A stretch of 64,000 nt of DNA from Leptothrix sp. (in: b-proteobacteria) (GTDB lineage Bacteria; Pseudomonadota; Gammaproteobacteria; Burkholderiales; Burkholderiaceae_C), in assembly GCA_965250675.1 (NCBI GenBank), contig CBDFPH010000003.1. One strand, given 5' to 3'. Below the pieces are notes generated by a model. The model made no database searches. It was given only the letters and a program-made list of their open reading frames with translations, and was not told where the DNA came from. Every line of letters begins with the position of its first letter. The first letter of the stretch is position 1. Positions 26,419-56,884 of this stretch are shown here, piece after piece. A program made the translations under genes and the position numbers.

Positions 26419-27435
26419 TCAGGGCCGCACCAGACTCAGCGCTTCAGGGTTGACGATATTTGTTGGCTGACCCTTGAGGTAATTCGCTACGTTCTCGAAC
26501 GCCGCTGCGAAATACTGGTCGTAGTTGTCCTGCTCGACATAACCGATGTGCGGCGTGCACACTGCATTTTCCAGCCGCAGCAGTGGGTGGCCTTGCAGGA
26601 TCGGTTCGCTTTCGAACACGTCTACCGCAGCCATGCCGGGCCGGCCGCGGTTGAGAGCACCCACCAGTGCACTGTCTTGCAAAAGTTCCGCGCGTGAGGT
26701 GTTCACGAACAGCGCTGTCGGCTTCATCCGCGCCAAGTCCTCCGGACCAATGCAGGCCCGCGTGGCGTCTGCCAAGCGCAGGTGCACACTCAGCACGTCG
26801 CTGGTCTCGAACAATTCGGCACGTGACGCAAAAACGCTCAAACCATCGGCAGCGGCACGCTGGCGGCTGGCTTCGCTGCCCCAGATGCGCACCGTCATGC
26901 CAAACGCCTGGCCATAGCGCGCCACCAACTGTCCAATACGGCCGTAGCCCCAAATGCCCAGCGTCTTGCCTTGCAACAACATGCCGAGGCCGAAATTAGG
27001 TGGCATCGAGCCGGCTTTCAGACCCGATTGCTGCCACGCACCGTGCTTGAGGTTGCTGATGTACTGCGGCAGGCGCCGCATGGACGCCATGATCAGCGCC
27101 CACGTCAATTCAGCCGGCGCCACCGGTGAGCCCACGCCTTCGGCCACCGCAATGCCCAGCTTGGTGCAGGCTTCAATGTCGATGTGAGATCCCGCACGGC
27201 CGGTTTGCGAAATCAGCCGCAAGCGCGGCAATTTTTCCAGCAACTGACGCGGAAACTGCGTCCGATCACGAATCAACACCAGAACTTCCGCGTCCTTGAG
27301 TCGGATCGAGAGTTGACCAATGCCTTTGACCGTATTAGTGAAGATCTTGGGCGTGTGAGGCTCAAGCAGTGACGCGCAGGACAGCTTGCGCACCGCGTCC
27401 TGATAGTCATCGAGGATGATGATATTCATGTGCAC
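26419..27435 (-). CDS. D-2-hydroxyacid dehydrogenase family protein
   Basis: GIWGYGRIG Rossmann motif, NTSRAEL, AAVDVFESEP, TPHIGY. Confidence 0.93.
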   Translation of the reverse strand: MHMNIIILDDYQDAVRKLSCASLLEPHTPKIFTNTVKGIGQLSIRLKDAEVLVLIRDRTQFPRQLLEKLPRLRLISQTGRAGSHIDIEACTKLGIAVAEGVGSPVAPAELTWALIMASMRRLPQYISNLKHGAWQQSGLKAGSMPPNFGLGMLLQGKTLGIWGYGRIGQLVARYGQAFGMTVRIWGSEASRQRAAADGLSVFASRAELFETSDVLSVHLRLADATRACIGPEDLARMKPTALFVNTSRAELLQDSALVGALNRGRPGMAAVDVFESEPILQGHPLLRLENAVCTPHIGYVEQDNYDQYFAAAFENVANYLKGQPTNIVNPEALSLVRP

Positions 27436-27447
27436 CAGCGTCTAAAA

Positions 27448-27475
27448 ATGCATGCCAATGCATATTATGTCAACC
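27448..27475 (+). other. dif-like site = attL of the prophage
   Basis: ATGCATGCCAA-TGCATA-TTATGTCAACC. The right arm resembles the XerD arm of E. coli dif (TTATGTTAAAT), and the 17-bp core recurs at 39466-39482 with one mismatch. Confidence 0.8.
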
Positions 27476-27586
27476 CGACTACGTGCCCGCACGCGCCCTG
27501 CGATCGCACTTGGCGCTTTGCTATCTTCTGTTAAGTCCCGCGATTTCACTCGATTTGCCCTTATCTGAGCCGGGGATGATTGATTC

Positions 27587-27994
27587 ATGTCAATCCACCT
27601 CATCCCCAAACACACGCCGAAGTTGTCCATTATCGTGGACGATCTTGCATGCTCTCCCGCTGCGGCCGCTGCCGCGCTGGGTGTCTCAGAGCGCACGCTG
27701 AAACGCTGGCTCGCCGATGACGAGGCGCCGCGGGCGGCGTGCCTCGCGCTGTATTGGGTGTCGCGCTGGGGACTGTCGGCGCTGGATTGCCACCTGCACC
27801 AGGCCGCGCAGATCTACGGCAACCAGGTGCGCGGCTTGGAGCGTGAGTTGCAGCGCGTGCGCGGCGAGCTGGCCCGCGTGCTGCACCACGCCACGTTTGA
27901 AAGCGCAAACGCCCCGACGATGATGGCGCCGGGGCGTCTGCCCTTGGTGTCTGCAGAGGTGGTGCAGCTGCGGCCGCGCCGGGTCAGGGGTTGA
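27587..27994 (+). CDS. Phage HTH (XRE-like) protein with C-terminal coiled coil
   Basis: AAAALGVSERTLKRW helix-turn-helix; GGGGA SD upstream. Confidence 0.75.
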   Translation: MSIHLIPKHTPKLSIIVDDLACSPAAAAAALGVSERTLKRWLADDEAPRAACLALYWVSRWGLSALDCHLHQAAQIYGNQVRGLERELQRVRGELARVLHHATFESANAPTMMAPGRLPLVSAEVVQLRPRRVRG

Positions 27995-28388
27995 GTGCCA
28001 CCCAGCCAGTGAGCTGGCAATTCTTGTTCGGCGGCACCACGGCGTTGTCCTGCAGGACGGCCGCCCGGTAAGCGCCCTCCTTCGCCATGGCGGCGACGAT
28101 CATTTCGTAGGGCGTGGCTGTGAAGCCGCCCGCGAACTTGATGCGCATGACGATCGACGACGTGGCGCCGTACTTCTCATGCTGGGGCCACGGGCCGCCG
28201 ATCACGTCAGCGTCAACAAAGCGCGCCGTGCGGTGGTAGCACTTCAGCGTCTGCTGTGCGAAGTCGATCACGCTGGCGTCCAGGGACAGCGCCTGCACTT
28301 GCCCGGGCTTGTTGAACTCGCTGATCCCCTGCTGCAGCACTGCGGGGTTCTGCATCATCATGGTCACGATGGTTGTAATGGGGTCCAT
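27984..28388 (-). CDS. Hypothetical phage protein (134 aa)
   Basis: AGGTGAG SD; natural composition; two Cys; no recognised family. Confidence 0.65.
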   Translation of the reverse strand: MDPITTIVTMMMQNPAVLQQGISEFNKPGQVQALSLDASVIDFAQQTLKCYHRTARFVDADVIGGPWPQHEKYGATSSIVMRIKFAGGFTATPYEMIVAAMAKEGAYRAAVLQDNAVVPPNKNCQLTGWVALNP

Positions 28389-28605
28389 GGCTCACCTGAG
28401 TTGTTCGCCCGGATTGGTGCACATCTGCAGCAGCGACGGCATCCCCCGGATGGGCGATTGACGCTTTGGCATCCAGGCGCTGTTCGATGCGCATCAGCGT
28501 GCGCTCGATGGCGTCGACGCGGCCGCCCAGCGTCAGGGCGTTGCCCGTCCAGCCGATCAGCAGCCCGGCCAGCGCCACGCCGATCTTCACCAGCATTTCA
28601 TTCAT
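28213..28605 (-). CDS. Putative lysis-accessory membrane protein (TM plus coiled coil); 3' end uncertain
   Basis: MNEMLVKIGVALAGLLIGW...RVDAIERTLMRIEQRLD; ATGA-coupled to the upstream holin-like gene; the tail overlaps the next gene and looks out of frame. Confidence 0.55.
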   Translation of the reverse strand: MNEMLVKIGVALAGLLIGWTGNALTLGGRVDAIERTLMRIEQRLDAKASIAHPGDAVAAADVHQSGRTTQVSHGPHYNHRDHDDAEPRSAAAGDQRVQQARASAGAVPGRQRDRLRTADAEVLPPHGALC

Positions 28606-28769
28606 CGGGCGCCCTCCTTCATCAGCACAGCTGCGGCGCCGGCCAGCGCGCCGGCCCACGCCTGCGGGTCTGCGCCCTTGCTGGCCAGCAGCGCGGCCAG
28701 GCTCTGACAGATCAGGCCCATGCCGGCCCAGGTCGAGGGTTCACGAAGTCGGTAGATGATTTTGCTCAT
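28602..28769 (-). CDS. Putative holin (55 aa, below the track cutoff)
   Basis: MSKIIYRLREPSTWAGMGLICQSLAALLASKGADPQAWAGALAGAAAVLMKEGAR: two hydrophobic segments, an REPSTW motif seen in small phage membrane proteins, charged C-terminus. Confidence 0.6.
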   Translation of the reverse strand: MSKIIYRLREPSTWAGMGLICQSLAALLASKGADPQAWAGALAGAAAVLMKEGAR

Positions 28770-28885
28770 TGATAGTGGTTTGTGGGTGGGGGGGATTCAA
28801 TACTCACCGGCAGGGGCTTGGAAATTTGGCGAGGCTGGTGGCACGGGCTGCAAAAGATGGGTTAGCGTTCCGCGACGAATAACAT

Positions 28886-29836
28886 TTGGGAAAACTGAAC
28901 ATGGGCGGGGACACTTCTACCCAACTCTCGGTGGAGCACTTCACGAGTGCAGCCGACTTTTTGCTTGCTTTGCAACCTGAACGCTGGGTTGACAGACAGC
29001 AGTGGAAGACGCCTTGGGTATTCCGCGGTCAGCTGCGGTCCGAATGGCCGTTGTTGCCCTCCGCATGGCGACCCACCGACGCTCTGATGACGAAGCTTGT
29101 AAGGAGCGCTGTCGATACCGTTGATCCGTTGTGCCTCACGCCGTGCTTCCCAGCGACGTCGCCAATTTCTGCCGAAACCTCGAATCGACTCCGGATTGCG
29201 TTGGCCACTGCAGCCATTGAGCAGAAAATCTGCAGAGAGTTTGCAGACTTGGCGAACTCTGCTGGTCAATACGTCCGCCGAATCCCTGGAGAACTTCCTC
29301 TGATCCGCCTTTTGGAACAGGGACCGCCAATGCGCCTCACCGGAGTGTCTGCTCCCGATGCGCTCACTGCGATGGCTCAACACCACGGGATGCCCACCAG
29401 CCTGCTTGACTGGAGCGGGAGCGGCCAAGTGGCCGCATATTTCGCTGCCGCGGCTGTGCCAGAAGCCAGTTCGGTGGCCGACGAACGCCTCGCCGTCTGG
29501 GCAATCAATAGAACGCGCATCGGCGCCAACTTCAAGGAAGTTCCTGTACATCGGTCCGAGTTGCCCTATTTGCATGCACAACACGGCACCCTTACCTACT
29601 TCTCCGATGGGGACGACTTTGGGCACGCTCATTTCGCGGAGAAGGGGGTGTGGCCCGACATAGCAACTTACGCACAGCCAGGCGCAATCAAGAAGCTCAC
29701 CCTTGCACACAGCGAAGCAGGAGAGTTGCTTAGGTTGCTTTGGCTGAGAGGTGTCTCGAAGGTTCACTTAATGCCCATCTTGGACAACGTCTCGGAAACC
29801 TTGAAGTTGCAGTGGAAGTGGAGCGGCATAACCTAG
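28886..29836 (+). CDS. FRG domain-containing protein (prophage cargo)
   Basis: WVFRGQ...WPLLPSAWR and AQHHGMPTSLLDWS...AAYFA are FRG-domain motifs; lower GC; antisense to the structural operon. Confidence 0.85.
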   Translation: MGKLNMGGDTSTQLSVEHFTSAADFLLALQPERWVDRQQWKTPWVFRGQLRSEWPLLPSAWRPTDALMTKLVRSAVDTVDPLCLTPCFPATSPISAETSNRLRIALATAAIEQKICREFADLANSAGQYVRRIPGELPLIRLLEQGPPMRLTGVSAPDALTAMAQHHGMPTSLLDWSGSGQVAAYFAAAAVPEASSVADERLAVWAINRTRIGANFKEVPVHRSELPYLHAQHGTLTYFSDGDDFGHAHFAEKGVWPDIATYAQPGAIKKLTLAHSEAGELLRLLWLRGVSKVHLMPILDNVSETLKLQWKWSGIT

Positions 29837-31029
29837 CCCAGAGGGATGAACTGCATCGTGATGGGCTTATTGGCTGCAATGCTGAAGGAGTCGCCTGAAC
29901 TGCCCCCTGGGCCAGCGCTGTTGGCCCACAGTTGGCAGTTGACCGGTTTTGAGGATGCGACGGCCTGCACCATCTCCAGCGTGAACGGACCCGCATAGGC
30001 GGCGACGTCCGGCGCGGTGTAGCCGAACATGTAGGGCTGCGCCACCACGCCCCCGTCAATGTCCACGAATCGGGGCGCCAGGATCAGGCTGCGCCCGGCC
30101 GCCAGGTTGACCCAGCCGGTGAACCGGCAAATCACGTTGGCTGCCCCCGTGGGGCCGCTGTAGACCGGGCACACCGCCGCGCTGTCGATGATGGCCGCGC
30201 TGGTCCCGATGGCTGTGCTGGTCAGGCTGGTGAGTTGCAGTGCGGTCGGTCTGCGCGGAATGTCCAGCATCCCGGCTGTCATGGCCGGCGCTGCCTCGAC
30301 CGCTTGATCGCCATCGCTGAACCAAGCGCGTCGAATCTCTACAACATCGTCGGTCGCTCCATCGAACTGGTAGAACTCGACGCCCGGGTACGCACAAACC
30401 ACGTCCGCAATGGCCGGGTTCTCGCCAACCGCGGTCGTGCCATCTGGCAACAGGATGTATGCCTTCCCGCCATCAAGCGAAAGCTCGACCGTGTACCACT
30501 TGTCAACGTCCAGCGCCTTGTTGTACCGACCGGTCTTGTAGTTGGTGATGGTGCCGTTTGTATTCGGCAAGTTCCCGATTGACCAGCCCCACCGATTGAA
30601 AACCAAGTGCGCCGGAGTCGGCGGAATATTGGCGCTAGCCGTCACGCTGTCCCGCCATGGGATCAGTGCCGCGGCCCCGTTTCTTCCTCCCGAGCCAGCC
30701 CGAAAGCGAATCTCCGCCCTGATGCGCTTGCAGCCGGCTGGCATTGGCATATCTGAGTACCACGCGCGCTGCCCGGCGCCTGCCGACGATGTGAGCACGC
30801 CGCCGGATGCAATGAGTGGAGCGCCGTTAGACCGAAAGGAGATTGCGCGGCCAGCCGACGACAGCACCGGCACACCGCTGGCGGGGTTCATCAGGTCAAC
30901 CGAATTTCCAGCCCTTGACACCGAGGATTGAATCGGCAGGATCTCATTTACCCCCGCCATCTGCTGCACCAGGCCGATCAGGCGGCCGTCGTCGTCGAAC
31001 TGGCCTTCTAGGTTTTGAATCGTCGTCAT
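29833..31029 (-). CDS. Putative spike / receptor-binding protein
   Basis: 398 aa, beta-rich and G/A/S/T-rich, with a lectin-like-looking middle (KWYTVELSLDG); last gene of the structural run. Confidence 0.55.
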   Translation of the reverse strand: MTTIQNLEGQFDDDGRLIGLVQQMAGVNEILPIQSSVSRAGNSVDLMNPASGVPVLSSAGRAISFRSNGAPLIASGGVLTSSAGAGQRAWYSDMPMPAGCKRIRAEIRFRAGSGGRNGAAALIPWRDSVTASANIPPTPAHLVFNRWGWSIGNLPNTNGTITNYKTGRYNKALDVDKWYTVELSLDGGKAYILLPDGTTAVGENPAIADVVCAYPGVEFYQFDGATDDVVEIRRAWFSDGDQAVEAAPAMTAGMLDIPRRPTALQLTSLTSTAIGTSAAIIDSAAVCPVYSGPTGAANVICRFTGWVNLAAGRSLILAPRFVDIDGGVVAQPYMFGYTAPDVAAYAGPFTLEMVQAVASSKPVNCQLWANSAGPGGSSGDSFSIAANKPITMQFIPLG

Positions 31030-31038
31030 GCGGGGCTT

Positions 31039-31158
31039 TCAGTTCATTCCGGCTTGCGATCGCAGCCAGGCGCGGAGTTCGGGGATTTGGCCGATGACGA
31101 ATGCCACGGTCATCGTCACGGCCAGCTGGCGGGCCACGTCGCGCACGAAACGGTTCAT
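31039..31158 (-). CDS. Small phage membrane protein (39 aa)
   Basis: MNRFVRDVARQLAVTMTVAFVIGQIPELRAWLRSQAGMN; ATGA overlap with the upstream gene; fills the gap between genes exactly. Confidence 0.65.
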   Translation of the reverse strand: MNRFVRDVARQLAVTMTVAFVIGQIPELRAWLRSQAGMN

Positions 31159-31613
31159 CGGAAGAGGCTGCCGGCGTAGAGGTTGTAGGGGTCTTCGCTG
31201 CCGCTGCCGCTGGCGAAGGTGCCGGCCTGCTCATAGACGGCAGTGCTGGCACCGGTGCGGCCCATGTCGGCCAGGCGCTGCAGGTCGTTGCCGAACAGCA
31301 GGGATGCGCTCGACGGCTGCACGGCTGGGCGCAGGGTGATCGGCTCGGTCAGGGCACGCTCTGCGGCCACGGTGCTGGGGTTCATCAGCTCGAAGATGCG
31401 GGAGCCGAGATTCCAGCTGTCGTCGCCGCTGGCAGCAGCACCCACCGCGTTGACGCTGCGGGCCGCCACGTTGTTCGGGCTGGCCGGGTTGATGGCGCCG
31501 TTGCTGACGGCTTCGCCAACGGTGCTGGCGCCCTTCCAGAGCACCCAGGCCGCGCCGCCCACGGCGGCCGCAATGGCGAACACCTGCATGTCGCCGAGAT
31601 TGAGCGCCTTCAT
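31155..31613 (-). CDS. Phage membrane protein (N-terminal TM)
   Basis: TM segment, then INPASPNN...VNAVG...WNLGSRIFE, a pattern I recall from PM2-like prophage proteins. Confidence 0.7.
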   Translation of the reverse strand: MKALNLGDMQVFAIAAAVGGAAWVLWKGASTVGEAVSNGAINPASPNNVAARSVNAVGAAASGDDSWNLGSRIFELMNPSTVAAERALTEPITLRPAVQPSSASLLFGNDLQRLADMGRTGASTAVYEQAGTFASGSGSEDPYNLYAGSLFR

Positions 31614-32263
31614 GCCAGCACCCCACCGGCTGTTTCGTACTTCGCCAGCAGCGTCGACAACTTGCGCTCAGGCTGGCCGTAGCCGGCGCCCGGCAGGCTC
31701 GCCCATTCGGCTTTGCACTTGCCGATGGCTGCTTCGATGCGACCGGCTTGCACGTCGCCCATGGCGCCACGGTTGCGGATCAGCCAGCACGCGGCCGCGT
31801 CCTGGTTCATCGGGCTGAAGTCCGCCAAGCCCAGGGCGCGGCGGGCGCTCAGCCAGGTTGCGCGGATGATCTGGTAGCGGCCGGCCGCAGTGCTCACCAT
31901 GCCGGCGTACTGGCTGCCGAGGTGCGCGATGCTCTCGCCGGTCCATTCGCGAGTCACGGCGGGGTGATCCGTGAACGACTGGATGGTGTGGCGGTAGCCG
32001 AAGCAGACGCGGTACGGGTCAGAGCGCAGGTCAGTGCCTTCAGCGGCTGCAATCATGCTCAGGAAGGCCCGCGTGTTGGTATCTCGCATGTCGGTGTCCA
32101 GGTTGCTTTGATCCATGAATCGGTCGATCGCGCCGATCGGATCGACGTAGTCCAGCGCGGTGGAGCCGTCGTCAGATTCAGCAGCGGCGGCGTCCGCTTG
32201 TGACCGCACCAGGAGCACGCCCAGCAGGGCGGCACCGGCGGCGATCACTATTTTTTTGTTCAC
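31610..32263 (-). CDS. Lambda-type lysozyme / lytic transglycosylase with N-terminal membrane anchor
   Basis: RAFLSMIAAAEGT, STAAGRYQII..TW, DFSP.NQD.AA, EWASLPGAGYGQ. Confidence 0.9.
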   Translation of the reverse strand: MNKKIVIAAGAALLGVLLVRSQADAAAAESDDGSTALDYVDPIGAIDRFMDQSNLDTDMRDTNTRAFLSMIAAAEGTDLRSDPYRVCFGYRHTIQSFTDHPAVTREWTGESIAHLGSQYAGMVSTAAGRYQIIRATWLSARRALGLADFSPMNQDAAACWLIRNRGAMGDVQAGRIEAAIGKCKAEWASLPGAGYGQPERKLSTLLAKYETAGGVLA

Positions 32264-33024
32264 AGCGTCTCGACTTCAAACCGCACGTTCAGGTTTGCGC
32301 CGTTGGTCAATGCCTTGAAAAGCAGATAGCTGCCAGGCGGAAGGACGAACGGGGATTTCGAGTAATCGAACTCGTTCTGAACTGCCGGCTGAATCAAATA
32401 ACTGTGCCGAGATTTTGAGCTTGGAAACTTGGCATCGAATGCACCCAGCGTTGCGTAGCTGTTTGCAAAAATGTCGCACTGGCCCACCGGCAAATCAGGG
32501 CTGCCAATCAATTTATTGAAAACCGTATCGGTCGCCAAAAACCCAGCGGCAACAATGTTTGAGCCAGATATTGCAGAAACCAATGCGGCAGTGTCTGAAG
32601 AAATGTTCAGATTGGTAATTGCCAGCGGTGTCGTCCCATTGTTTCGAATGCCGGCGATAGGCTGATTCCCAGCAGTGCCGCTGATACCGATCGTGCCGAT
32701 GTAGCTTTTGCCAGCGAGGGTCTTTTCGGCGCTGCTGTCGATCACCCGCACGTTGCCGGGCTGTCGACGGCTACCGCCCCGGCCGGTTTCCATCACCAGG
32801 ATCTGCACGGTTTGAGCCGTGGGCGAGTAGATGACGAACGCGCCGTAGGTGTCTTCCAGGAACAGGCCGGAGACGGCGTTGACCATCTGGTCAGACTGGC
32901 GGCCGCTGGCTTCGTAGAAGTCGATGCGCACCGGGCCGCTGGACTCGATCAGCTCGAAGTAGCGCCCTGCCCGCTCGAAACGCTTGGTCTCGCCCGCAGT
33001 CAGGGTGATGGACAGAAGTTCCAT
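32260..33024 (-). CDS. Putative penton/spike protein
   Basis: Beta-rich N-terminal ~100 aa at host-like GC; visibly AT-richer C-terminal domain; position in the structural module. Confidence 0.55.
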   Translation of the reverse strand: MELLSITLTAGETKRFERAGRYFELIESSGPVRIDFYEASGRQSDQMVNAVSGLFLEDTYGAFVIYSPTAQTVQILVMETGRGGSRRQPGNVRVIDSSAEKTLAGKSYIGTIGISGTAGNQPIAGIRNNGTTPLAITNLNISSDTAALVSAISGSNIVAAGFLATDTVFNKLIGSPDLPVGQCDIFANSYATLGAFDAKFPSSKSRHSYLIQPAVQNEFDYSKSPFVLPPGSYLLFKALTNGANLNVRFEVETL

Positions 33025-33027
33025 GGA

Positions 33028-33834
33028 TCAGGCTTTCTTGAAGAACGAGAGGGCCACCAGGCCGGCAATGGCGAACATGGCGTACTTCATGACGTCCGCG
33101 CTCTTGTTCTCGGCCGGCTGATAGGTGCTCATGGCCGATGTGGCGATGCCCTGAGCGGCTTTCAGCGTGCCGTCGGCACTGCTGAAGATGCGATCGAGCG
33201 TGTCGCCCGAGATGTCGAGCGTGTGCCCCCAGGCCTGCGCGCTGTTGCTCTGCGCCTGCCCGAACATGGACGTGACCGACTCACCCGAGGTGCGCAGCGC
33301 GTCATAGCCGAAACCGGCCAGCACGCCCACGGCGTCGCCGTTGGCTTCAGCCTGCGCGCCCACCAGCTGCGCGCCGATCTCTGCAAACCGCACGGCGCCG
33401 GGGTCGGTGCCGGTGATGTTGGTCGAGCGGTTGGAGTAGTCCGCGAACGTGCTGGCGTAGCTGTCGGCGTCGTTGACCGAACGGTTCGAGGTATCCGACC
33501 AGGTCGACGTGTCCTGGTCGAAAACGGTGGTTGACCGGTTCGAGGTGTCGGACCAGGTCGACGTGTCCTGGTCGTAGACGTTGGTCGAGCGGTTCGAGGT
33601 ATCCGACCAGGTCGACGTGTCCTGATCGTTGACGTTGGTCGACCAGTTCGACGTGGTCGTGTTGTTGCGGTTGCTGCCGGCGTTGGTGTTGTCGGTGCTG
33701 TAGTCGAGGTACTGGCTGTTGTCGGACGAATCGAACGTGTTGGTGTTCGTCGTCGAGACGTAGTTGCTGCTCGTCTGCGCACTGGTGGTCTTGTTGCCAC
33801 CACTGCCGATTCCCAGGAAGCTCAAGAGGCCCAT
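33028..33834 (-). CDS. Phage membrane protein with 18-aa tandem repeats (candidate DNA delivery protein)
   Basis: S/T/D/N-rich; (NVxDQDTSTWSDTSNRST)x3; C-terminal TM followed by KKA. Confidence 0.75.
   Translation of the reverse strand: MGLLSFLGIGSGGNKTTSAQTSSNYVSTTNTNTFDSSDNSQYLDYSTDNTNAGSNRNNTTTSNWSTNVNDQDTSTWSDTSNRSTNVYDQDTSTWSDTSNRSTTVFDQDTSTWSDTSNRSVNDADSYASTFADYSNRSTNITGTDPGAVRFAEIGAQLVGAQAEANGDAVGVLAGFGYDALRTSGESVTSMFGQAQSNSAQAWGHTLDISGDTLDRIFSSADGTLKAAQGIATSAMSTYQPAENKSADVMKYAMFAIAGLVALSFFKKA
33482..33643. repeat. 54-bp tandem repeat, 3 copies plus a degenerate fourth to the left
   Basis: CGGTTCGAGGT(A/G)TC(C/G)GACCAGGTCGACGTGTCCTG starts at 33482, 33536 and 33590. Confidence 0.92.
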
Positions 33835-34292
33835 CAGGATTTCGCTTTCTTGGCCTTGAGGATGACCAGCACCATCAAGCCCAGCATGATGTAGGTGGTG
33901 GTATTGCCACCCGCCTGAACCAGCGCGAACGGCTCAGCACCATCACCGGTGATGGAGTCGAACCCGCTCAGCGCCGGCACGCCGTAGGCGTACTGCGTGG
34001 CCTGCGCTTGGCTGACCTCAAACGGGTTGAAGCCCGCCGTAGGCGGCAGGGGCAGCGCTGCAGCGCCCACGCGCTGCGTGGCCGTGCCGCGACCCGTCGC
34101 CACGTTGATGCCCAGGGTCGGCCCGCCGTTGGAGATGCCACCGGTGTTGGCCGGGCCGCTGTAGCCGTCGTTGAACGACAAGCCCAGGCCACCGGCCGCG
34201 CCTCCACCCGGCATGCCGGGCATGCCAGGGGGCACGCCCATGGCGGCCATGCCCATGCTGGCGAGCAGCGCCGTCTGCTGACCGTTCGCCAT
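33834..34292 (-). CDS. Phage membrane protein (G/P-rich, C-terminal TM)
   Basis: Ends YIMLGLMVLVILKAKKAKS. Confidence 0.75.
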   Translation of the reverse strand: MANGQQTALLASMGMAAMGVPPGMPGMPGGGAAGGLGLSFNDGYSGPANTGGISNGGPTLGINVATGRGTATQRVGAAALPLPPTAGFNPFEVSQAQATQYAYGVPALSGFDSITGDGAEPFALVQAGGNTTTYIMLGLMVLVILKAKKAKS

Positions 34293-34295
34293 AGG

Positions 34296-34700
34296 TCACG
34301 CCATCGCCAAGTAGGCGACCAGGGCGGCAATGATGAGCGTGGTGGTCGAGCTTTGCGCGGCAGGCGGTTGCGCGGCGCCGGCCTGGTTGCCTGCGCCGTT
34401 CTGGTACGTGCGGCCGTTCTGGCCGGAGAACGTGCCGGGGTTGGTGTTGCCGCCAATGCCGGCCACCTGCCCCGGCATGGCGTTGTCGATCGCACGGGTG
34501 GCGCCGTACATCACCAGGCGCTCCCACCACGGCGCGGCCGGGTTGCTGTTGACCGGTGCCGGGGTGTAGGGGTTCATGCGCTGAGCTTCCGCACCATCGC
34601 CCGGCATGAAGTACGGATTGCCCAGCAGCGTCTGTTGCTCAGCGGGGAGACCGGCCACGTAAGCGTTCGCGTCGCTGGCGAAAAGGTTGTAGTCGCTCAT
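34296..34700 (-). CDS. Phage membrane protein (C-terminal TM)
   Basis: Ends TLIIAALVAYLAMA; directly downstream of the capsid gene. Confidence 0.75.
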   Translation of the reverse strand: MSDYNLFASDANAYVAGLPAEQQTLLGNPYFMPGDGAEAQRMNPYTPAPVNSNPAAPWWERLVMYGATRAIDNAMPGQVAGIGGNTNPGTFSGQNGRTYQNGAGNQAGAAQPPAAQSSTTTLIIAALVAYLAMA

Positions 34701-34712
34701 CGCATGGTCCGA

Positions 34713-35546
34713 TCAGAGCTGGCTGTTCAGCGCGTAGCCTTCGACGTAGATCCCGATCGTGTCCGCGCCGCTGGTGCGCAGGCGAATGTCCAGGTTCTGC
34801 ACCGGCACGGCCTTGCCGGCCGCGACGGTGAACGCGGTGTTGAACGCGTTGGACTGCAGCACGTCGGGCATGAAGTCCACGATGTGGAAGCCAGCCTGCG
34901 GCAGGTTGCCGAAGTCCTGTTCGCGGAAGTTGGCCAGGGCCACGGGCACGTCTTCGTAGATCTCGACGCCGTCGCGGCGCACGCGGGCCGCAGCCAGGTT
35001 GCCGCCGTGCTTGAGCACCAGGCGCTTGACTTGGAAGCCTTGCGCACCGAACGGCAGGTAGATCATTTCTTCGGCGGCGGCCGCGATCACCTTCTGTTGG
35101 TACATGACGCGGTGCACGATCGTGTTCGCGCTGGGGGATTCCACGTCGGCATACACCGTGATGCCGCTGCCTGCGGCCGGCACGTAGGTGCCCAGGTCGA
35201 ATTCAAGGGTGAAGTCCTGCACGCCGGCCTCTTGGCACGCGGCGATGGTGCCCAGCGTCATCGCGACTTCTTCACGGGCGCGGCGCTCGGTGAAGTCGAT
35301 CACGAAGAAACCGGCGTTCAGCGTGTTGCCCTTGTACGCGTTCAGCGCGTCCAGGTCAGTCGCCAAATTCCAGCGCTGGAATTCTTTGTTGTTGAGGCGC
35401 AGCGTGATGTTGCTCATCAACGCCTTGGTGATGTTCGTGCCCAACACGAAGTACAGCTTCTGGTAGACCACACCCAGGGGCAGGCGCAGCGAAACCCGCG
35501 TGTTCGGGCTGACGTTCTGAAGGGCGGGGAGCTTGATGATGCGCAT
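34713..35546 (-). CDS. Double jelly-roll major capsid protein, PM2 P2-like
   Basis: 277 aa. LQNVSPNTRVSLRLPLGVVY matches the pattern of PM2 P2 IPNVAAGNSCSIKLPIGQTY as I recall it; also FFVIDF, HIVDFM...QNLDIRL...IYVE; adjacent to the packaging ATPase. Confidence 0.88.
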   Translation of the reverse strand: MRIIKLPALQNVSPNTRVSLRLPLGVVYQKLYFVLGTNITKALMSNITLRLNNKEFQRWNLATDLDALNAYKGNTLNAGFFVIDFTERRAREEVAMTLGTIAACQEAGVQDFTLEFDLGTYVPAAGSGITVYADVESPSANTIVHRVMYQQKVIAAAAEEMIYLPFGAQGFQVKRLVLKHGGNLAAARVRRDGVEIYEDVPVALANFREQDFGNLPQAGFHIVDFMPDVLQSNAFNTAFTVAAGKAVPVQNLDIRLRTSGADTIGIYVEGYALNSQL

Positions 35547-35570
35547 TGTTTTCCTTGGGTGTGAAGTCGA

Positions 35571-35687
35571 TCAGCCCATCAGCGCCTTGTCGACCAGCGG
35601 CTTGGCCGGGCCGATCTTGCGGAGCACAAAAATGGTGAGGAGGACGACACCGGTCGTCATCAGGGCGTCTTTGACTTTGCTTTGCAT
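35571..35687 (-). CDS. Small phage membrane protein (38 aa)
   Basis: MQSKVKDALMTTGVVLLTIFVLRKIGPAKPLVDKALMG; single TM; just upstream of the capsid gene. Confidence 0.7.
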   Translation of the reverse strand: MQSKVKDALMTTGVVLLTIFVLRKIGPAKPLVDKALMG

Positions 35688-35799
35688 GGGGTGTTCCGTT
35701 CTGGATTTGAGGGGGTGAAGAGCCGCCAGTAAACCCCCGCCGAACGTCACGAACAACCCCCCGCCAACGTACCCGTATACGTATGGAAAACGCGCTGAA

Positions 35800-36483
35800 T
35801 CACCGCCCCGTGAACGGGGTTGATCGCTCCGTGAACTTGCCGTTGCGAATGTGGATTTCGCCCGCGATCAGCGTCTTCTCGCGCCTGTCACGTTGCAAGT
35901 AGCGGATCACCACGCCGGTCGGCGTGTCGTCGGTCTGAAGCAGGCCCATGGCCGAATCAGGGCAGTCCAACTCACGTGCCATCGCGCGGCGGTCGGCCTC
36001 ATAGCCCAGGCCGAAGCACCTCACGCGGGTGCAGTTGCCAAGGAAGGTTTTGTCGATCAGGGATGGCCGCTGCGCCGCGCCCAGCACCTGCAGGCCCCGG
36101 TGCCGGCCCTGCGTGGTGATCCGGCGCCAGGCGGGCGGCGCATAGCCCGGTGTCGTCACGTCGGACAGCTCTTCGGCCAGGAAGCACAGCGCGCCCGCCT
36201 CGAACGCCAGCGCGCACACCAGCCCGAAGGCGTCGGCCAGCTTCAGGGCCGATCCCGGCACGTAGCGCACGCGGATCGGCCCGGCGCCGGCCTTGCGGAA
36301 TGCGGCCACCAGCGCCGGCAGCGTGCGCACGGCCGGGGCCTGCTTGGCGTACTCGTCGCGGGGATCCCAGATCAGCAGCCGGGGCGGTGCCAGCTCGGCG
36401 AGCCGGCGATTGATGCTCACGCCCTTGCCGCTGCCCGAGGCGCCGATGTAGGCCTCGATCTGGGGGCGGTTGGTGACGCTCAT
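35800..36483 (-). CDS. Genome packaging ATPase (FtsK/HerA superfamily, A32/P9 type)
   Basis: Walker A GASGSGKG, LIWDP, Walker B FLAEEL, QGRHRG...AAQRP; ATG 36483 overlaps the upstream stop. Confidence 0.9.
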   Translation of the reverse strand: MSVTNRPQIEAYIGASGSGKGVSINRRLAELAPPRLLIWDPRDEYAKQAPAVRTLPALVAAFRKAGAGPIRVRYVPGSALKLADAFGLVCALAFEAGALCFLAEELSDVTTPGYAPPAWRRITTQGRHRGLQVLGAAQRPSLIDKTFLGNCTRVRCFGLGYEADRRAMARELDCPDSAMGLLQTDDTPTGVVIRYLQRDRREKTLIAGEIHIRNGKFTERSTPFTGR

Positions 36484-36908
36484 GCGCGGCGCTTGCGCTC
36501 TTCGGCGGCCAGCTCCATCTGTCGCTGCTTGAACGCGAAGTAGGTGGCGACGCACGGCGGGATGATTGCGCACAGCATGGCGATATACGGCCCGTATTTG
36601 CTGGCAACTTCGCCCATGTTCCAGCCGTGCTGCTCCATGATCGCGGCCGCGCTGTCAGCGATCTGGCGTAGCTGATGGTCGCTCCAGACTGCCGCGAACT
36701 GCGGCCACCAGGTGACAGCAGGCGCCGCGATCATGCGGCCCATCTGCATGAATGCGATCAGCTCATCAGCCGTGCTCATGGCCGGCGCAGCGCCGGGCAG
36801 CGCGGCGGGCGCGGCCGCAGATTCCAGCGCGGCCGCTTGGGCTTCCAGCGCGGCCAGGGGATCGCCAGCGGGGGCGGGCTGGTCGATGATTTCGGTTTCA
36901 GTGGTCAT
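36480..36908 (-). CDS. Phage membrane protein upstream of the ATPase
   Basis: C-terminal TM (YIAMLCAIIPPCVATYFAF) followed by a basic tail. Confidence 0.72.
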   Translation of the reverse strand: MTTETEIIDQPAPAGDPLAALEAQAAALESAAAPAALPGAAPAMSTADELIAFMQMGRMIAAPAVTWWPQFAAVWSDHQLRQIADSAAAIMEQHGWNMGEVASKYGPYIAMLCAIIPPCVATYFAFKQRQMELAAEERKRRA

Positions 36909-36912
36909 GGGT

Positions 36913-37218
36913 TCACCAGCTCATCAGGGATTTGCGCGCCGGCGCCGCAGGGGCTGCAGCGGGCGCGGTTGAGGGGGTAGGCGCGGCCGGTGCTGGTGCG
37001 GGCGCTGGCGGTGCCATTGCGGGTGCCGGCGCCGGCTCGGCAATGTGCCTCGCCCGTAACGAGGAGTCGGACGCGTCGCCGCGCGCAAACGTCTGCGATT
37101 TGCAGTCGCTGCACGTCACGTAGGGCAACAGCTTTTTCGACACACGCAGGCGGGCCTGTTCGGACCCGCACACCGGGCAGCGGCACCGCCCGATTTCGTT
37201 TTCGCGGGCGGCGGTCAT
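36913..37218 (-). CDS. Zinc-ribbon protein (candidate late transcription activator)
   Basis: CPVCG...YVTCSDC...TF; A/P-rich tail. Confidence 0.72.
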   Translation of the reverse strand: MTAARENEIGRCRCPVCGSEQARLRVSKKLLPYVTCSDCKSQTFARGDASDSSLRARHIAEPAPAPAMAPPAPAPAPAAPTPSTAPAAAPAAPARKSLMSW

Positions 37219-37415
37219 CAGTCGACCAGGACGGGAGCCACGGGTTCCGTGCGGGCCTGCGCCACGGCCAGGGTTTCCAGCGCGGCGGCAGTGGCGGTCA
37301 TGAACTCTGCGGCCAGTTCGCCCAGGCGGACGATGGGCGCCGGGACGAATTGCCGGCTGGAGTTGTCGACCAGGTGCTGTGCCTCAGCGGCGATTTCTGC
37401 GGGGGTGCGGTTCAT
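37218..37415 (-). CDS. Hypothetical phage protein (65 aa)
   Basis: Tightly coupled to both neighbours. Confidence 0.6.
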   Translation of the reverse strand: MNRTPAEIAAEAQHLVDNSSRQFVPAPIVRLGELAAEFMTATAAALETLAVAQARTEPVAPVLVD

Positions 37416-38302
37416 GGGTGGTTCTCGGGTGGGTGGCTCGGTTCAAGAGCCGGGGTGGACCGCCGTTCAAGTTCTTTGAACGGTCGGGGAATTCCTTGTC
37501 CTACTGGTGACGGGGTTACGGGCTGCTGGCGTTGCTCAGGATCAGGCCGTAGAGCCGTTTTGGGGGGCGTGGGTGCCCTACCCCCTTGGGGGTCTGTTTT
37601 TGAGCGCAGGAAGCGCTCCCTGAGCGCCTGAGCGCGCATGACTGCCGTGCGGCTGTCGACGGCGGGCGCTTCGTCGCTGGCAGGCGGCGGGGGGGCGTGC
37701 CGCGCAGCGGCTTCATTCAACCCCCCTCGGGGGGTCTGTTGAACCCCTCCCTCGACTGCTTCAGTCTGTGGATAACTTGCGGTCTTGGGGGTAGGGGGTT
37801 TTAAGAAATTCTTCTTGAAAGAGCTGTTCTCTTTCGTGTTTTCTTCGTGTTGTGAACTTGAAGAATTCGTTGCTGCGTAAGGGGTTGATGCACGTTTGTG
37901 GCTGTTTTCATCCCTGTTCAATTTTTCCGTGGACGTGCTTTTCCAGACCCTGGGTGCGATCTGAAAAAACAGGACTTGCTCGGTCTCCGACCGGCCCTTG
38001 TCACGCGCCAGGATCAGCAGCTTCTCGAAGGCCGCCAGCATCGTGCGCACCTGCTGCAGGCTGATCGTGGGGAGCCGCTTGCCGCGTGCGGGCTGGTCGG
38101 GCTGCAGGGCGTTCAGCAGCTCGCCGTAGCTGGTCTTCACGGTGCCCTTCTTGAAGTCGCTGAAGGCGGCCAGGCACATGAACAGGCGCGTGCCCCACGC
38201 CGGCAGGCCCCAGAGGGCTTGCCACTCGTGTTCCAGGACGGGAAGAAAAAGGGCCGAACCCGGCCCGAAGTTGTGGGAGCGAACGAGCTGCATCACCATC
38301 AC
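37412..38302 (-). CDS. Putative replication initiator (wHTH-like N-terminus, low-complexity C-terminus)
   Basis: Largest early gene; helical N-terminal ~120 aa; AT-rich internal tract; no HUH or polymerase motifs seen. Confidence 0.55.
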   Translation of the reverse strand: MMVMQLVRSHNFGPGSALFLPVLEHEWQALWGLPAWGTRLFMCLAAFSDFKKGTVKTSYGELLNALQPDQPARGKRLPTISLQQVRTMLAAFEKLLILARDKGRSETEQVLFFQIAPRVWKSTSTEKLNRDENSHKRASTPYAATNSSSSQHEENTKENSSFKKNFLKPPTPKTASYPQTEAVEGGVQQTPRGGLNEAAARHAPPPPASDEAPAVDSRTAVMRAQALRERFLRSKTDPQGGRAPTPPKTALRPDPEQRQQPVTPSPVGQGIPRPFKELERRSTPALEPSHPPENHP

Positions 38303-38520
38303 ACGTCCAGCCTGATGAAGCGCACCACGGCGGCCTGGTGGTCGTAGCCGGTGTCCCAGAGGTAGGCCACGCGGGCCTTCTCTTCCGCGTCCAGGACGCT
38401 GCGGGCCATGCCCGACCAGAGGAAGCCCGATGCTTCGTCAGGGTGGCTCAGGCAGACGGCGTACCGCAGCTGCTCGGCACGTGGCCGGGCGCGCAGGAGG
38501 GGGAGGATGGCGGCCTTCAC
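38299..38520 (-). CDS. Hypothetical phage early protein (73 aa)
   Basis: Overlapping start and stop codons with neighbours. Confidence 0.6.
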   Translation of the reverse strand: MKAAILPLLRARPRAEQLRYAVCLSHPDEASGFLWSGMARSVLDAEEKARVAYLWDTGYDHQAAVVRFIRLDV

Positions 38521-38705
38521 AGGGCGCCCTCAATGTGCTCTGCTGCAGCGCGGATGACGCCAGCACGGCGGCGCAGCTCGCGGCGCTTGCTTTCGTCCGG
38601 CTCGTAGGCGGCAGCTTGCTCCAACTCGCCGTATTTCTCCCATGCCGCTTCCATGGCTTCGCGGGCTTCTTCGTCGGTCAGCTTGTAGAGCTTGAAGTTC
38701 TTCAT
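38517..38705 (-). CDS. Hypothetical phage early protein (62 aa)
   Basis: Charged helical peptide, coupled to neighbours. Confidence 0.62.
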   Translation of the reverse strand: MKNFKLYKLTDEEAREAMEAAWEKYGELEQAAAYEPDESKRRELRRRAGVIRAAAEHIEGAL

Positions 38706-38929
38706 GCTTCCACCCCTGCCCGCGCAAACAGCCGGCGGCGCTCGACGGCGGGCTTGACGTTCTCCAGCGGCTCGACGTGCTTCCAGGTCGGGAAGCCTGC
38801 GACGCGGATCAGCGCGGCCGGGCGGCCTGCGCGGTCACGGCAGAGGTTGGCCAACGTGCCGAAAAGCTCGGTGTCGGTGCAACCGAAGGTGAACCGGACT
38901 TGATCGCCCGGCTGGAATGCTGCGTTCAT
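38702..38929 (-). CDS. Hypothetical phage early protein (75 aa; may start at 38995)
   Basis: FQPGDQVRF start resembles small SH3/KOW-like beta-barrels. Confidence 0.55.
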   Translation of the reverse strand: MNAAFQPGDQVRFTFGCTDTELFGTLANLCRDRAGRPAALIRVAGFPTWKHVEPLENVKPAVERRRLFARAGVEA

Positions 38930-39044
38930 GGTGATGGCCTCTTGCGCCGGCCCCGTCTTGCCCCTTGCCCCCTCGGAGGGGGCCGCTGCGCTCACGGTGA
39001 CGGGGCCAGCCGTCAGAAACCGTGAATTGCGCAGCGACGGCGAG

Positions 39045-39116
39045 AGGATACGTACAGCGTCGCTAGACAGTCAAGCGACGCTGTACCTTGCCCCATGGTT
39101 TTCTAGGGCGTAAAGT
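39045..39116. promoter_or_regulatory. Divergent promoter/operator region of the prophage
   Basis: Leftward TTGACT(39074-39069)-N18-TATCCT; rightward TTGCCC(39088)-N17-TAAAGT(39111); perfect 13-bp inverted repeat 39052-39064 / 39074-39086. Confidence 0.65.
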
Positions 39117-39146
39117 GTCACTAGACGTTTCAACCGGGGCCAGCCA

Positions 39147-39479
39147 ATGAAGACAGTCGAATTTCTGGACGCACTCAAGCGTCAGCACTCGATCGAGAGC
39201 GATTACGGGGTTTCCAAGCTGCTGGGGATCACCCGCCAGCGCCTGAGCAACTACCGCTCAGGGCGCGATTTTTTCGGGGATGAGATCGCAAGCCAGGTTG
39301 CGCAGATGCTCGGGCTTGACCCGGGCTATGTGATGGCCTGCGCCCACGCAGAGCGGGCCGCTACAGCAGAGATTCGGGCGGTGTGGGAGAGCGTCGCGGC
39401 CAAGCTGGCCGGCGTGGGCGCCGTTGCAGCGCCCGCCCCGTCAAAGGCTCAGAAGAAGGAGCCTTTGCATATTATGTAA
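39147..39479 (+). CDS. Prophage repressor (XRE-like HTH), 3' end overlaps attR
   Basis: SDYGVSKLLGITRQRLSNYRSG HTH; divergent from the early operon; the last codons H-I-M-stop are the att core. Confidence 0.82.
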   Translation: MKTVEFLDALKRQHSIESDYGVSKLLGITRQRLSNYRSGRDFFGDEIASQVAQMLGLDPGYVMACAHAERAATAEIRAVWESVAAKLAGVGAVAAPAPSKAQKKEPLHIM

Positions 39480-39482
39480 ACC
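39455..39482 (+). other. dif-like site = attR of the prophage
   Basis: GAAGGAGCCTT-TGCATA-TTATGTAAACC; 16 of 17 bp identical to 27459-27475. Confidence 0.8.
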
Positions 39483-39506: not shown

Positions 39507-40034
39507 TCAGGCCGCTGGTGCTGCACCCATCAGAAAATCGACCTTTCCCAGGTCGACGCCGTTGTGGCGCAGCAGCGCGTAGGCGGTCGTGACGTGGAAG
39601 TACACGTTGGGCAGCGCCCATTGCAGGAGGTAGGCCTCGCCCTTCATCGTGCGCGTTTTCTCGCGACCGATGGGGAACGTGACGTCCTTGTCTTCCGTGC
39701 CATTCACGGCGCTGGCGGGCACCGTGGCGATCCAGGCCAGGGTTTTGGCGATGCGCTCTTTCAGCTCGACGACCGTCGTTTCGTTGTCGTCGAACTTGGG
39801 CGCTTCCAGGCCGCTGAGCCGGGCCACGCAGAGCTTGGCCATGTCGCAGGCGATGCGCACCTGCGACGCCAGCGGCAGCATGTCGGGCGCCAGGCGCATG
39901 GGCACCAGCACGTTGACGTCGAACTTGCGCACTGCCGCATTGGCGATCGCCTTGTCGAGGCAGTGATCAAGGTTGGACAGCGCGGAGTGGAACACCGGCA
40001 GGCTGCAGCTGGACATCGAGATGGTCATGGTCAA
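39507..40034 (-). CDS. DUF1993-like protein
   Basis: RLAPDMLPLASQVRIACD, LPNVYFHVTTAYALLRHNGV. Confidence 0.85.
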   Translation of the reverse strand: MTMTISMSSCSLPVFHSALSNLDHCLDKAIANAAVRKFDVNVLVPMRLAPDMLPLASQVRIACDMAKLCVARLSGLEAPKFDDNETTVVELKERIAKTLAWIATVPASAVNGTEDKDVTFPIGREKTRTMKGEAYLLQWALPNVYFHVTTAYALLRHNGVDLGKVDFLMGAAPAA

Positions 40035-40055
40035 GTTCCTGGGTTCAGTCGTGAA

Positions 40056-55816: not shown

Positions 55817-56884
55817 ATGAAGTCTTACCCGCTGTTCCCGTCGATCGAGGCTGAAGACCTGCGCACGGAGTTGCTGGCGCTGTTCGAGCGCTGGCTGGCC
55901 TCCAAGCCCGGGCGCAGCCGTCAGAAAGTGCATGCGCTGGCCAATGAGTCGGCCCATGTCTATCGGGACATGTGGGGCGCGTTCGCATCGTTCTGCATTC
56001 CGCTCGATGAGGAAGGGTTGCACTACGTGCGGGTTAACCCGCTGCAAGGCGTGCGCCGGGAGCAGATGCAGCTTTTCCTGTCACTACCCAACCCGGGGCC
56101 GCGAGCGCCTGGTCGGGGCCGCGTCCGCAATGACGCGCTGGCGCTGCGCTACGCCTGGCGCATGCTGCACCTGATCGACCGGGTGCTGACGTTCCACCGC
56201 ATCCGCAAAAAGGAAAAAAGCGCCGGTCCCACGGCGGCTGCAGCGCTGTTGCTGGAAGCGCCCTACCGCTACGCCAACTCGGCCGCGCTGAATCCTGAGA
56301 CGGAAATCCTCAGCGACGGCGAACTGAGGCGGCTGATGGCGCTGTTGACTGCCCCGTTGCCAAGCAACAGTTCGCCGCGCGGTGAATGGCGCCTGGTGCG
56401 TGACCGGGCGCTGGTGGCGCTGATGCTGGGCGCCGGGCTTGGCCCCGGCGACGCGCAAGGCCTGCTGCTGGACGGGCTGGCGCTGGAGGATGGCCCCGTG
56501 CCCGGCGTGCCGTGGCGCTTGACCGTGCCGGCCGATGGCCTGTCGCCTGAACATCAGACGCCGGTGGCGCAATGGGCGGGAGAGTTGCTGGCACGTTGGC
56601 TGGCGTTGCGCACGGCCAAGGCCATTGCCGGCGACTTCGTGTTTCCGTCCACCCTGAGCGGCAAACAATTGTCCCGGCCGGCGGTGCACAGTGCGGCCGT
56701 CAGCGTGCTGGAAGCAGCCGAGGTCATGGGCGGCGCTCCGTTCCGTTTGCGGCACACTTTTGCCGTGCGGCAGTTGACCAAGGGCTACTCGGAAGAACAG
56801 GTGGGCGCCTGGATGGGCATGGTCGAGTTGCGCACCATGCAGCGCTACCGCAAGTACGTCGTCAAGGCGCAGGATCTGGCCTGA
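55817..56884 (+). CDS. Tyrosine recombinase-fold protein with degenerate active site
   Basis: RDRALVALMLGAGLG, LRHTFA, TMQRY align to the XerD boxes. Confidence 0.8.
   Translation: MKSYPLFPSIEAEDLRTELLALFERWLASKPGRSRQKVHALANESAHVYRDMWGAFASFCIPLDEEGLHYVRVNPLQGVRREQMQLFLSLPNPGPRAPGRGRVRNDALALRYAWRMLHLIDRVLTFHRIRKKEKSAGPTAAAALLLEAPYRYANSAALNPETEILSDGELRRLMALLTAPLPSNSSPRGEWRLVRDRALVALMLGAGLGPGDAQGLLLDGLALEDGPVPGVPWRLTVPADGLSPEHQTPVAQWAGELLARWLALRTAKAIAGDFVFPSTLSGKQLSRPAVHSAAVSVLEAAEVMGGAPFRLRHTFAVRQLTKGYSEEQVGAWMGMVELRTMQRYRKYVVKAQDLA

Follow-up and report, generated by a model that had tools for sequence, protein, structure and literature searches.

An apparently intact PM2-like prophage at a dif-type site in a Leptothrix-like Burkholderiales chromosome

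Locus and gene content

The window analyzed here (a 64,000-nucleotide stretch of contig CBDFPH010000003.1 from the Leptothrix sp. assembly GCA_965250675.1) contains a block with its own gene orientation, 12,007 bp from repeat to repeat, that resembles the genome of the tailless membrane phage PM2. A preliminary description of this DNA had placed a PM2-like prophage in a Burkholderiales chromosome at 27459-39482. These limits are exact, as a 17-bp direct repeat, TGCATATTATGT[C/A]AACC, occupies both ends (27459-27475 and 39466-39482). To the left is a 2-hydroxyacid dehydrogenase gene (26419-27435, minus strand) and to the right are a DUF1993 gene and then alaS (39507-42683, minus strand). At 90% identity or more, the host alanyl-tRNA synthetase falls into one cluster with Leptothrix cholodnii SP-6 and Leptothrix metagenome-assembled genomes (MAGs), in agreement with the order proposed for the host. 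The features of the element are collected in Table 1.

The predicted major capsid protein matches both domains of the PM2 capsid protein in Pfam (P2_N, 3e-31, 108 bits; P2_C, 1.6e-25, 90 bits; the cut-off is 25 bits). A profile of 32 homologues reaches two solved capsids in the PDB, 9t9v_A (1.1e-9), which we take to be the NO16 capsid, and PM2 P2 (2vvf/2w0c, 6.7e-7). We assign the protein a double jelly-roll (DJR) fold based on these sequence-profile matches, as had been proposed before. The predicted packaging ATPase shares 32.5% identity with PM2 P9 over 200 amino acids. It also matches phrog_2666 (1.5e-21), a family labeled “terminase”, although the label spans only the ATPase domain, and its other matches are of the HerA type only. 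We place it by sequence in the FtsK/HerA “A32-like” packaging group. A grouping with the conjugative VirB4/TraG proteins, which the preliminary description had raised as the contrary outcome, was not found; the best relative is PM2 P9. One small gene separates the ATPase gene from the capsid gene, as in PM2.

The genes run colinear with those of PM2: repressor, early genes, P13 and P14 slots, gp h, P9, P7 and P2, followed by membrane proteins, gp j, P1 and then lysis. The PM2-like layout of the earlier account is therefore borne out, with five PM2 homologues in the PM2 order. That account also had the open reading frames (ORFs) looking intact and translationally coupled; in the leftward series, neighboring genes overlap by 1-10 nt at 9 of the 16 junctions. 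Family and profile scans of all ORFs in 27459-39482 found no integrase, serine recombinase or transposase families, and no portal, tail, relaxase, type IV secretion system (T4SS) or plasmid replication families. The earlier statement that tail, portal and terminase genes are absent holds, given the restricted span of the terminase label. No RNA families were found in the element region (Rfam).

The capsid has 425 homologues, many of them on contigs of 10-11.5 kb, and the best 120 of the 425 are 61-81% identical. Those with a name are few and belong to Sphaerotilus mobilis, Aquabacterium and Burkholderiaceae. We compared the element with 22 related loci, among which 12 genes form a conserved core. 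All 12 core genes, which are shared with free circular metagenome genomes, are present here, uninterrupted and of similar length. The circular relatives have terminal overlaps of 94-127 nt (loci L011, L014 and L015), and circular contigs are 10.5-11.9 kb long. The closest relative, L001, has 81% capsid identity and the same dehydrogenase flank. In a capsid tree the window sequence groups with Burkholderiales and metagenome sequences, and 2.1 substitutions per site separate this clade from PM2, PG21, an autolykivirus and two other Vibrio phages. The identity to the capsid of any isolate is 23-27% (tblastn), and no member of the clade is in culture. When IMG/VR was scanned for patterns based on the capsid protein and on its alignment, no relatives came up, a result that may reflect the patterns chosen.

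These data bear on a non-viral alternative, an island, plasmid-like or conjugative, whose ATPase would be of the FtsK/VirB4 type and whose similarity to a capsid would be due to chance. The P9 homologue of one related phage has been automatically annotated as [quoted passage not shown], as that alternative would have it. Against this are two independent capsid-domain matches far above threshold together with the solved capsids, the five ordered PM2 homologues, the lack of relaxase, T4SS and plasmid replication families in the scans above, and the circular relatives. The island is effectively refuted by the capsid-domain, solved-capsid and PM2 P9 matches, and we give it almost no credence.

Table 1. 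Predicted features of the PM2-like element, in window coordinates
Feature	Position	Strand	Remarks
attL, hybrid dif	27459-27475	+	central region TGCATA and phage-side XerD arm TTATGTCAACC
135-aa helix-turn-helix (HTH) protein, terminal gene beside attL	27587-27994	+	
Hypervariable cargo region, ~3 kb, between lysis genes and P15-like gene	27984-31029		
Unique 134-aa ORF	27984-28388	-	
Transmembrane (TM)/coiled-coil gene fragment, conserved with relatives	~28400-28605	-	
Low-GC FRG-domain gene, PADLOC candidate PDC-S15	28886-29836	+	FRG Pfam 9e-14; PDC-S15 9e-23
398-aa possible receptor-binding protein	29833-31029	-	
152-aa protein with N-terminal membrane span, in late operon	31155-31613	-	
Lysozyme-like muramidase with N-terminal hydrophobic signal or anchor	31610-32263	-	phrog_90 endolysin 1.7e-42
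254-aa protein, two beta-sandwich domains, PM2 spike P1 position; candidate vertex/penton protein	32260-33024	-	
Three virion-membrane-type proteins, 134/152/268 aa, each with C-terminal anchor	33028-34700	-	
Predicted major capsid protein, PM2 P2-type double jelly roll, 277 aa	34713-35546	-	
61-aa membrane protein at PM2 P7 position	35571-35756	-	
Predicted packaging ATPase, PM2 P9 homologue, 229 aa	35800-36489	-	Walker A GASGSGKG
142-aa membrane protein at PM2 gp h position	36480-36908	-	
101-aa zinc ribbon, like PM2 late-transcription factor P14 (also 101 aa)	36913-37218	-	
65-aa ORF, PM2 P13 slot	37218-37415	-	positional analogue only
296-aa early protein, putative replication initiator by position (PM2 Rep P12 slot)	37412-38302	-	
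Three small early ORFs, 97/62/73 aa, overlapping stop/start codons	38299-38995	-	two with homologues in L001
Perfect 13-bp inverted repeat GTACAGCGTCGCT-N9-AGCGACGCTGTAC, candidate operator	39052-39086		divergent intergenic region
Predicted repressor, PM2 gp c homologue (P16/RstR-type), 110 aa	39147-39479	+	
attR	39466-39482	+	central region TGCATA and host-side XerD arm TTATGTAAACC

The two terminal genes encode one clear and one probable counterpart of PM2 regulators. The predicted repressor at the right end is 40% identical to PM2 gp c over 88 amino acids (E = 8e-14) and matches phrog_638 (5e-29) and DUF3693. The 13-bp inverted repeat overlaps the -35-like hexamer of the leftward early promoter (TTGACT-18-TATCCT) and is likely, from its sequence and position, to be the operator of the repressor. 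At the left end, the family profile of the HTH protein aligns with PM2 gp a (hhalign probability 56%, E = 1.1e-4; BLASTP 2e-3), and the protein is conserved in 13 relatives, always beside a dif-like site. It is probably a homologue of PM2 gp a (P15). The zinc ribbon is similar to P14 over a short segment (38% identity over 42 amino acids, a weak match), scores 22 bits against Lar_restr_allev, below the cut-off, and is kept in 21 of the 22 relatives. Both the repressor and the zinc ribbon had been named in the preliminary description, and each has a PM2 counterpart, the second weakly.

The putative initiator consists of a conserved helical N-terminal domain of 120 amino acids and a disordered tail. 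It has no family or PDB match and is neither a HUH Rep nor a Phage_GPA protein. Besides itself there are 7 unnamed homologues, in related elements, and an AlphaFold2 model built from the 8 sequences is poor (predicted local distance difference test, pLDDT, 48.8). The replication module is swapped among the relatives; the element of Leptothrix mobilis has a Phage_GPA Rep.

About eight small ORFs encode a single hydrophobic span at PM2-equivalent positions (hydropathy and reading of the sequences), matching the earlier count of at least eight TM proteins. The 268-aa member of this late block, at the PM2 gp j position, contains 3.4 tandem copies of a 54-nt unit (33471-33651) that encodes 18 amino acids and is rich in S, T, N, D and W. 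The 254-aa protein gave a confident AlphaFold2 model (pLDDT 81.6, above 90 for the N-terminal 80 amino acids). The alignment with the N-terminus of PM2 P1 is weak (hhalign probability 14%, E = 0.002), and Foldseek against the PDB returned generic jelly-roll and cupin folds only (template modeling scores 0.17-0.27), with the turret protein A223 of Sulfolobus turreted icosahedral virus (STIV) at rank 35. Against BFVD the model matched uncharacterized phage proteins, including those of autolykiviruses. The two genes called spike-like in the earlier account may encode spikes, given their position and the two-beta-domain model.

The lysozyme of the preliminary description is well supported by its endolysin family (Table 1). 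Its “holin-like” gene has no family match.

Attachment sites and the host Xer system

The terminal repeat is composed of TGCATA followed by TTATGTNAACC and agrees with E. coli TGTATA-TTATGTTAAAT at 14 of 17 positions. On this basis we read it as the central region of dif plus the XerD arm. The 12-nt core of the repeat occurs in these two copies only, in a search of the whole genome (3.93 Mb, 12 contigs). Directly upstream of attL, at 27447-27458, is the host sequence AATGCATGCCAA, which matches the XerC arm of the genus dif consensus (AATGCATGACGA) at 10 of 12 positions. By sequence, attL thus reads as a complete dif made of host XerC arm, central region and phage XerD arm, and it probably still serves as dif. 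The phage sequence that precedes attR, GAAGGAGCCTT, has no likeness to a XerC arm. A hairpin with a 9-bp stem (39442-39467, CAAAGGCTC...GAGCCTTTG) borders directly on the att core, on its phage side, at the position expected for the XerC arm; it could be a terminator of repressor transcription or could have an effect on recombination.

The orientation of FtsK-orienting polar sequences (KOPS, GGGNAGGG) on the contig (C3) switches at the element. To its left there are 20 copies on the plus strand and 2 on the minus strand, to its right 4 and 34. The last plus-strand copy on the left is at window position 25246, the first minus-strand copy on the right is at 45610, and the maximum of the cumulative GC skew coincides with the switch. 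The element therefore sits where the two polarities converge, and dif must be located there.

Exactly one copy of AATGCATGACGA-TGTRTA-TTATGT[CA]AAAT was found in 6 of the 32 congeners searched (none with the reversed control), and no PM2-like genes are near the dif-type site in those 6. The E. coli dif finds no match in the host genome with up to 7 mismatches allowed, because the XerC arm differs in the genus Leptothrix. The host assembly contains no dif-like sites beyond the two prophage ends. The genome encodes a XerD that scores 355 bits against an equivalog cut-off of 330. [quoted passage not shown]

Similar sites are found in the relatives. Dif-like repeats flank the prophages of L. mobilis, of Aquabacterium and Piscinibacter MAGs, and of the assembled or metagenome contigs L001, L012 and L016, and L007 and L013 have a weaker match of 10-13 nt at the dif core only. 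The circular metagenome genome L011 (11.8 kb, with a 127-nt terminal overlap) has a single dif-like site, between the repressor and P15-like genes. The half of dif that attP keeps varies, being XerC arm plus center in L007, L013 and L016 and center plus XerD arm in L001, L005, L006, L011 and L012. How the site is oriented with respect to the phage genes varies as well.

A conventional tyrosine integrase, acting in trans or since lost, might instead have targeted this AT-rich site without XerC/XerD. The host genome has 18 tyrosine-recombinase matches, and L001 carries a 380-aa Phage_integrase gene (761-1903) about 150 bp outside one att copy. That gene lies outside the repeats, however, and no homologue was found in the host genome or in the other 21 related loci, so we rejected it as part of the phage lineage. 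It probably belongs to a neighboring element, which suggests a second element in tandem at dif; IMEXs usually occupy dif in tandem arrays with unrelated elements. Also unfavorable to an integrase in trans are the composition of the att core (dif center and XerD arm, at the KOPS convergence) and the recurrence of dif-like ends in relatives with different hosts and flanking genes. We consider this explanation very improbable. In the host genome the nearest Phage_integrase match is 17 kb off and weak (39 bits; 56396-56854, plus strand, in a 358-aa open frame). This integrase-like frame is outside the prophage and was earlier noted as possibly catalytically dead.

Predicted life cycle, variable region and intactness

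We conclude that the element is very probably the integrated genome of a temperate, tailless, internal-membrane double-stranded DNA phage of the PM2 type, located at the host dif. From its intact, conserved ORFs it appears to be a complete prophage, as the preliminary description had it.

In the mechanism that we propose, a dif-like attP with a single arm would lie, in the circular phage DNA, between the genes for the repressor and the P15-like protein. Host XerC and XerD would recombine attP with dif, possibly aided by the P15/XafT-like protein, so that after integration attL would be a full dif and attR a crippled site. The P16-like repressor may silence the leftward early operon through the 13-bp inverted repeat over the promoter. 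Upon induction, the early genes (the orphan initiator and an activator pair like P13/P14) would turn on the late operon, whose products are predicted to build a membrane-lined icosahedral capsid with vertex spikes; the muramidase may be used for lysis or entry. The 3-kb region would be a hotspot for cargo, here occupied by the FRG/PDC-S15 candidate defense gene and a swapped candidate receptor-binding gene.

The junction itself changes the predicted repressor. Its final codons lie in the att core, and in the integrated form the ORF ends in ...EPLHIM with a stop codon supplied by the host arm. When the ends are joined, as in the circle, the ORF is 142 amino acids long and ends at 27568, 18 nt before the P15-like gene. 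The repressor homologues of L011, L023 and L005 also read through the dif-like site (..LYIMST.., ..CIMST..). The 110-aa and 142-aa forms might act as a sensor of the integration state that couples the lysis-lysogeny switch to Xer recombination, and in the excised circle the repressor gene and, directly downstream, the P15/XafT-like gene would share one transcription unit. The tails that are added show no sequence conservation, which counts against a specific function, and we regard the sensor as improbable.

The variable region contains three genes (398-aa, FRG-domain and 134-aa) that are absent from all 22 relatives. Since it has no counterpart in any of those elements, the FRG/PDC-S15 gene looks like a moron, inserted in the hypervariable region and a candidate defense gene by its sequence. 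The 398-aa protein has few homologues, which are found among very large genes (up to 1976 amino acids) of unidentified function on other contigs; it is possibly a swapped-in receptor-binding protein. Next to the P15-like gene, two minus-strand ORFs of 134 and 148 amino acids overlap (27984-28659). The 148-aa ORF (28213-28659) has the GC content at third codon positions (GC3) expected of coding sequence only at ~28400-28600, where it is homologous to a 73-aa TM/coiled-coil gene of the relatives. The overlap could be ordinary, or it could mark a lesion in a small TM/coiled-coil gene of the lysis region.

Several results tell against an intact phage that depends on Xer. We recognize no holin in the element, and the GTA_holin_3TM gene of L001 is missing here. 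By GC3 the coding frame shifts near 28390 in the 148-aa ORF, which could be a lesion. The 296-aa putative initiator has no known relatives, and against Pfam the P15-like protein matches generic HTH families only, without DUF3653 (presumably the XafT family). The host XerC-like protein scores 309 bits, below its equivalog cut-off of 335, and attP has no recognizable XerC arm. A query of the joined flanks found no empty site in 30 relatives, all of which belong to other species (74-79% nucleotide identity) whose terminus regions are rearranged; in other species of the genus, 43-128 kb separates the two flanks. In 7 of those relatives no dif-like site lies closer than 1.5 kb to the 2-hydroxyacid dehydrogenase gene.

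Some of these points would suit an element of PM2-type descent that is now defective or domesticated, produces no infectious particles and is kept, perhaps, for FRG/PDC-S15 or for superinfection immunity. Under that explanation the absent holin family, the replacement of the holin and 52-aa genes of L001 by the 398-aa and FRG genes, and the frame change in ORF 28213-28659 would be signs of decay, and an attR without a XerC arm could make excision rare. The holin is uninformative, however, because the GTA_holin_3TM family is detectable in just 5 of the 22 relatives. In excisable dif-type DJR phages, Cr39582 being one, a one-armed att site is normal (PMC12715192). The 12 core genes of the free circular genomes are uninterrupted here and of similar length, and the tight gene overlaps are preserved. 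Overall, we think that a defective element is unlikely, though it is the alternative to take most seriously, and we favor a functional temperate phage.

Relatives and known systems

If the predictions are correct, the lifestyle by which tailless membrane phages exploit Xer, established in marine Vibrio and Pseudoalteromonas, extends to freshwater Burkholderiales, here to the iron-oxidizing, sheath-forming Leptothrix/Sphaerotilus group. The number of capsid homologues points to a clade that abounds in metagenomes. The copy described here, apparently intact and in a genome of 12 contigs, offers a practical route to the first isolated phage of the clade. It also suits tests of a one-armed attP with a XerCD from outside Vibrio, and of protection of the lysogen by FRG/PDC-S15. 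As the sole dif-like sites of the assembly are the prophage ends, prophage finders and dif predictors are best run jointly.

The reference system is PM2 (Pseudoalteromonas; Corticoviridae, Vinavirales). The element shares with it homologues of P2, P9, gp c (P16), P14 and probably gp a (P15), and a 17-bp att site of central region and XerD arm between p15 and p16. Ma & Zhang (Commun Biol 2025, PMC12715192) placed the attP of PM2 itself, also 17 bp, at 747-763, and we checked that the PM2 sequence contains ATTTAACATAATATAAA at these positions. The two differ in that P2 identity is 21% and the element lacks a P12 rolling-circle Rep, has a recognizable lysozyme and an extra 3-kb cargo region, and is integrated, whereas PM2 was isolated as a lytic phage. 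From these sequence comparisons, and from a size within the range of about 8-13 kb for the small circular genomes of that group, we assign the element to the PM2-like viruses of the order Vinavirales. It appears to fall outside Corticoviridae sensu stricto (genus Corticovirus), given the P2 identity, the lack of a P12-type Rep and the long branch. PM2-like prophages were first cataloged by Krupovic & Bamford (2007), and Yutin et al. (2018) found the PM2 group to be the largest DJR group.

The architecture is most similar to that of the Vibrio “dif-type DJR prophages”, defined by Ma & Zhang as IMEXs at the chromosomal dif. These have a 28-bp or a one-armed 17-bp attP, terminal genes p16 and p15 (a XafT homologue), and a hypervariable region beside p15 that is rich in anti-phage genes. 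The element resembles them in having no integrase, a 17-bp one-armed att, a P16/RstR-type and a probable P15-type terminal gene, a cargo region of ~2-3 kb from p15 to the lysis genes with anti-phage candidates, and a size of ~12-13 kb. It differs in its host, a freshwater Leptothrix-like betaproteobacterium with one dif and a different XerC arm, in a capsid that is 23-27% identical to those of the Vibrio isolates, in its orphan 296-aa replication candidate and in its FRG/PDC-S15 cargo.

NO16 (a Vibrio phage, “Asemoviridae”) and Jorvik (a Rhodobacter phage) are likewise temperate, tailless DJR phages without an integrase and with dif-like att sites, and use of XerCD was proposed for both in 2023. 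Their hosts belong to different classes, the attB of Jorvik lies in the cbbII operon and not at the terminus, and neither phage gave a tblastn match to the capsid at 1e-3. The Jorvik survey reported 849 prophages across Alpha-, Beta- and Gammaproteobacteria; among those in its supplement is the L. mobilis element (L002; Leptothrix (Sphaerotilus) mobilis DSM 10617, SGWV01000008.1). L002 has 72% capsid identity with the element, the same late operon, a 35-nt dif-like direct repeat at both ends and no integrase. In L002 a 677-aa Phage_GPA rolling-circle Rep replaces the 296-aa protein, the FRG and 398-aa genes are absent, and the location is between nadC and the nap genes.

The preliminary description had suggested an undescribed lineage. 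This overstates the novelty, because the Jorvik survey already lists relatives in Betaproteobacteria, L002 among them, and the dif-type architecture has been published, so that the class of element is a described one. What sets this element apart is its uncultured Burkholderiales clade, its orphan replication candidate and its variable region with the FRG/PDC-S15 candidate.

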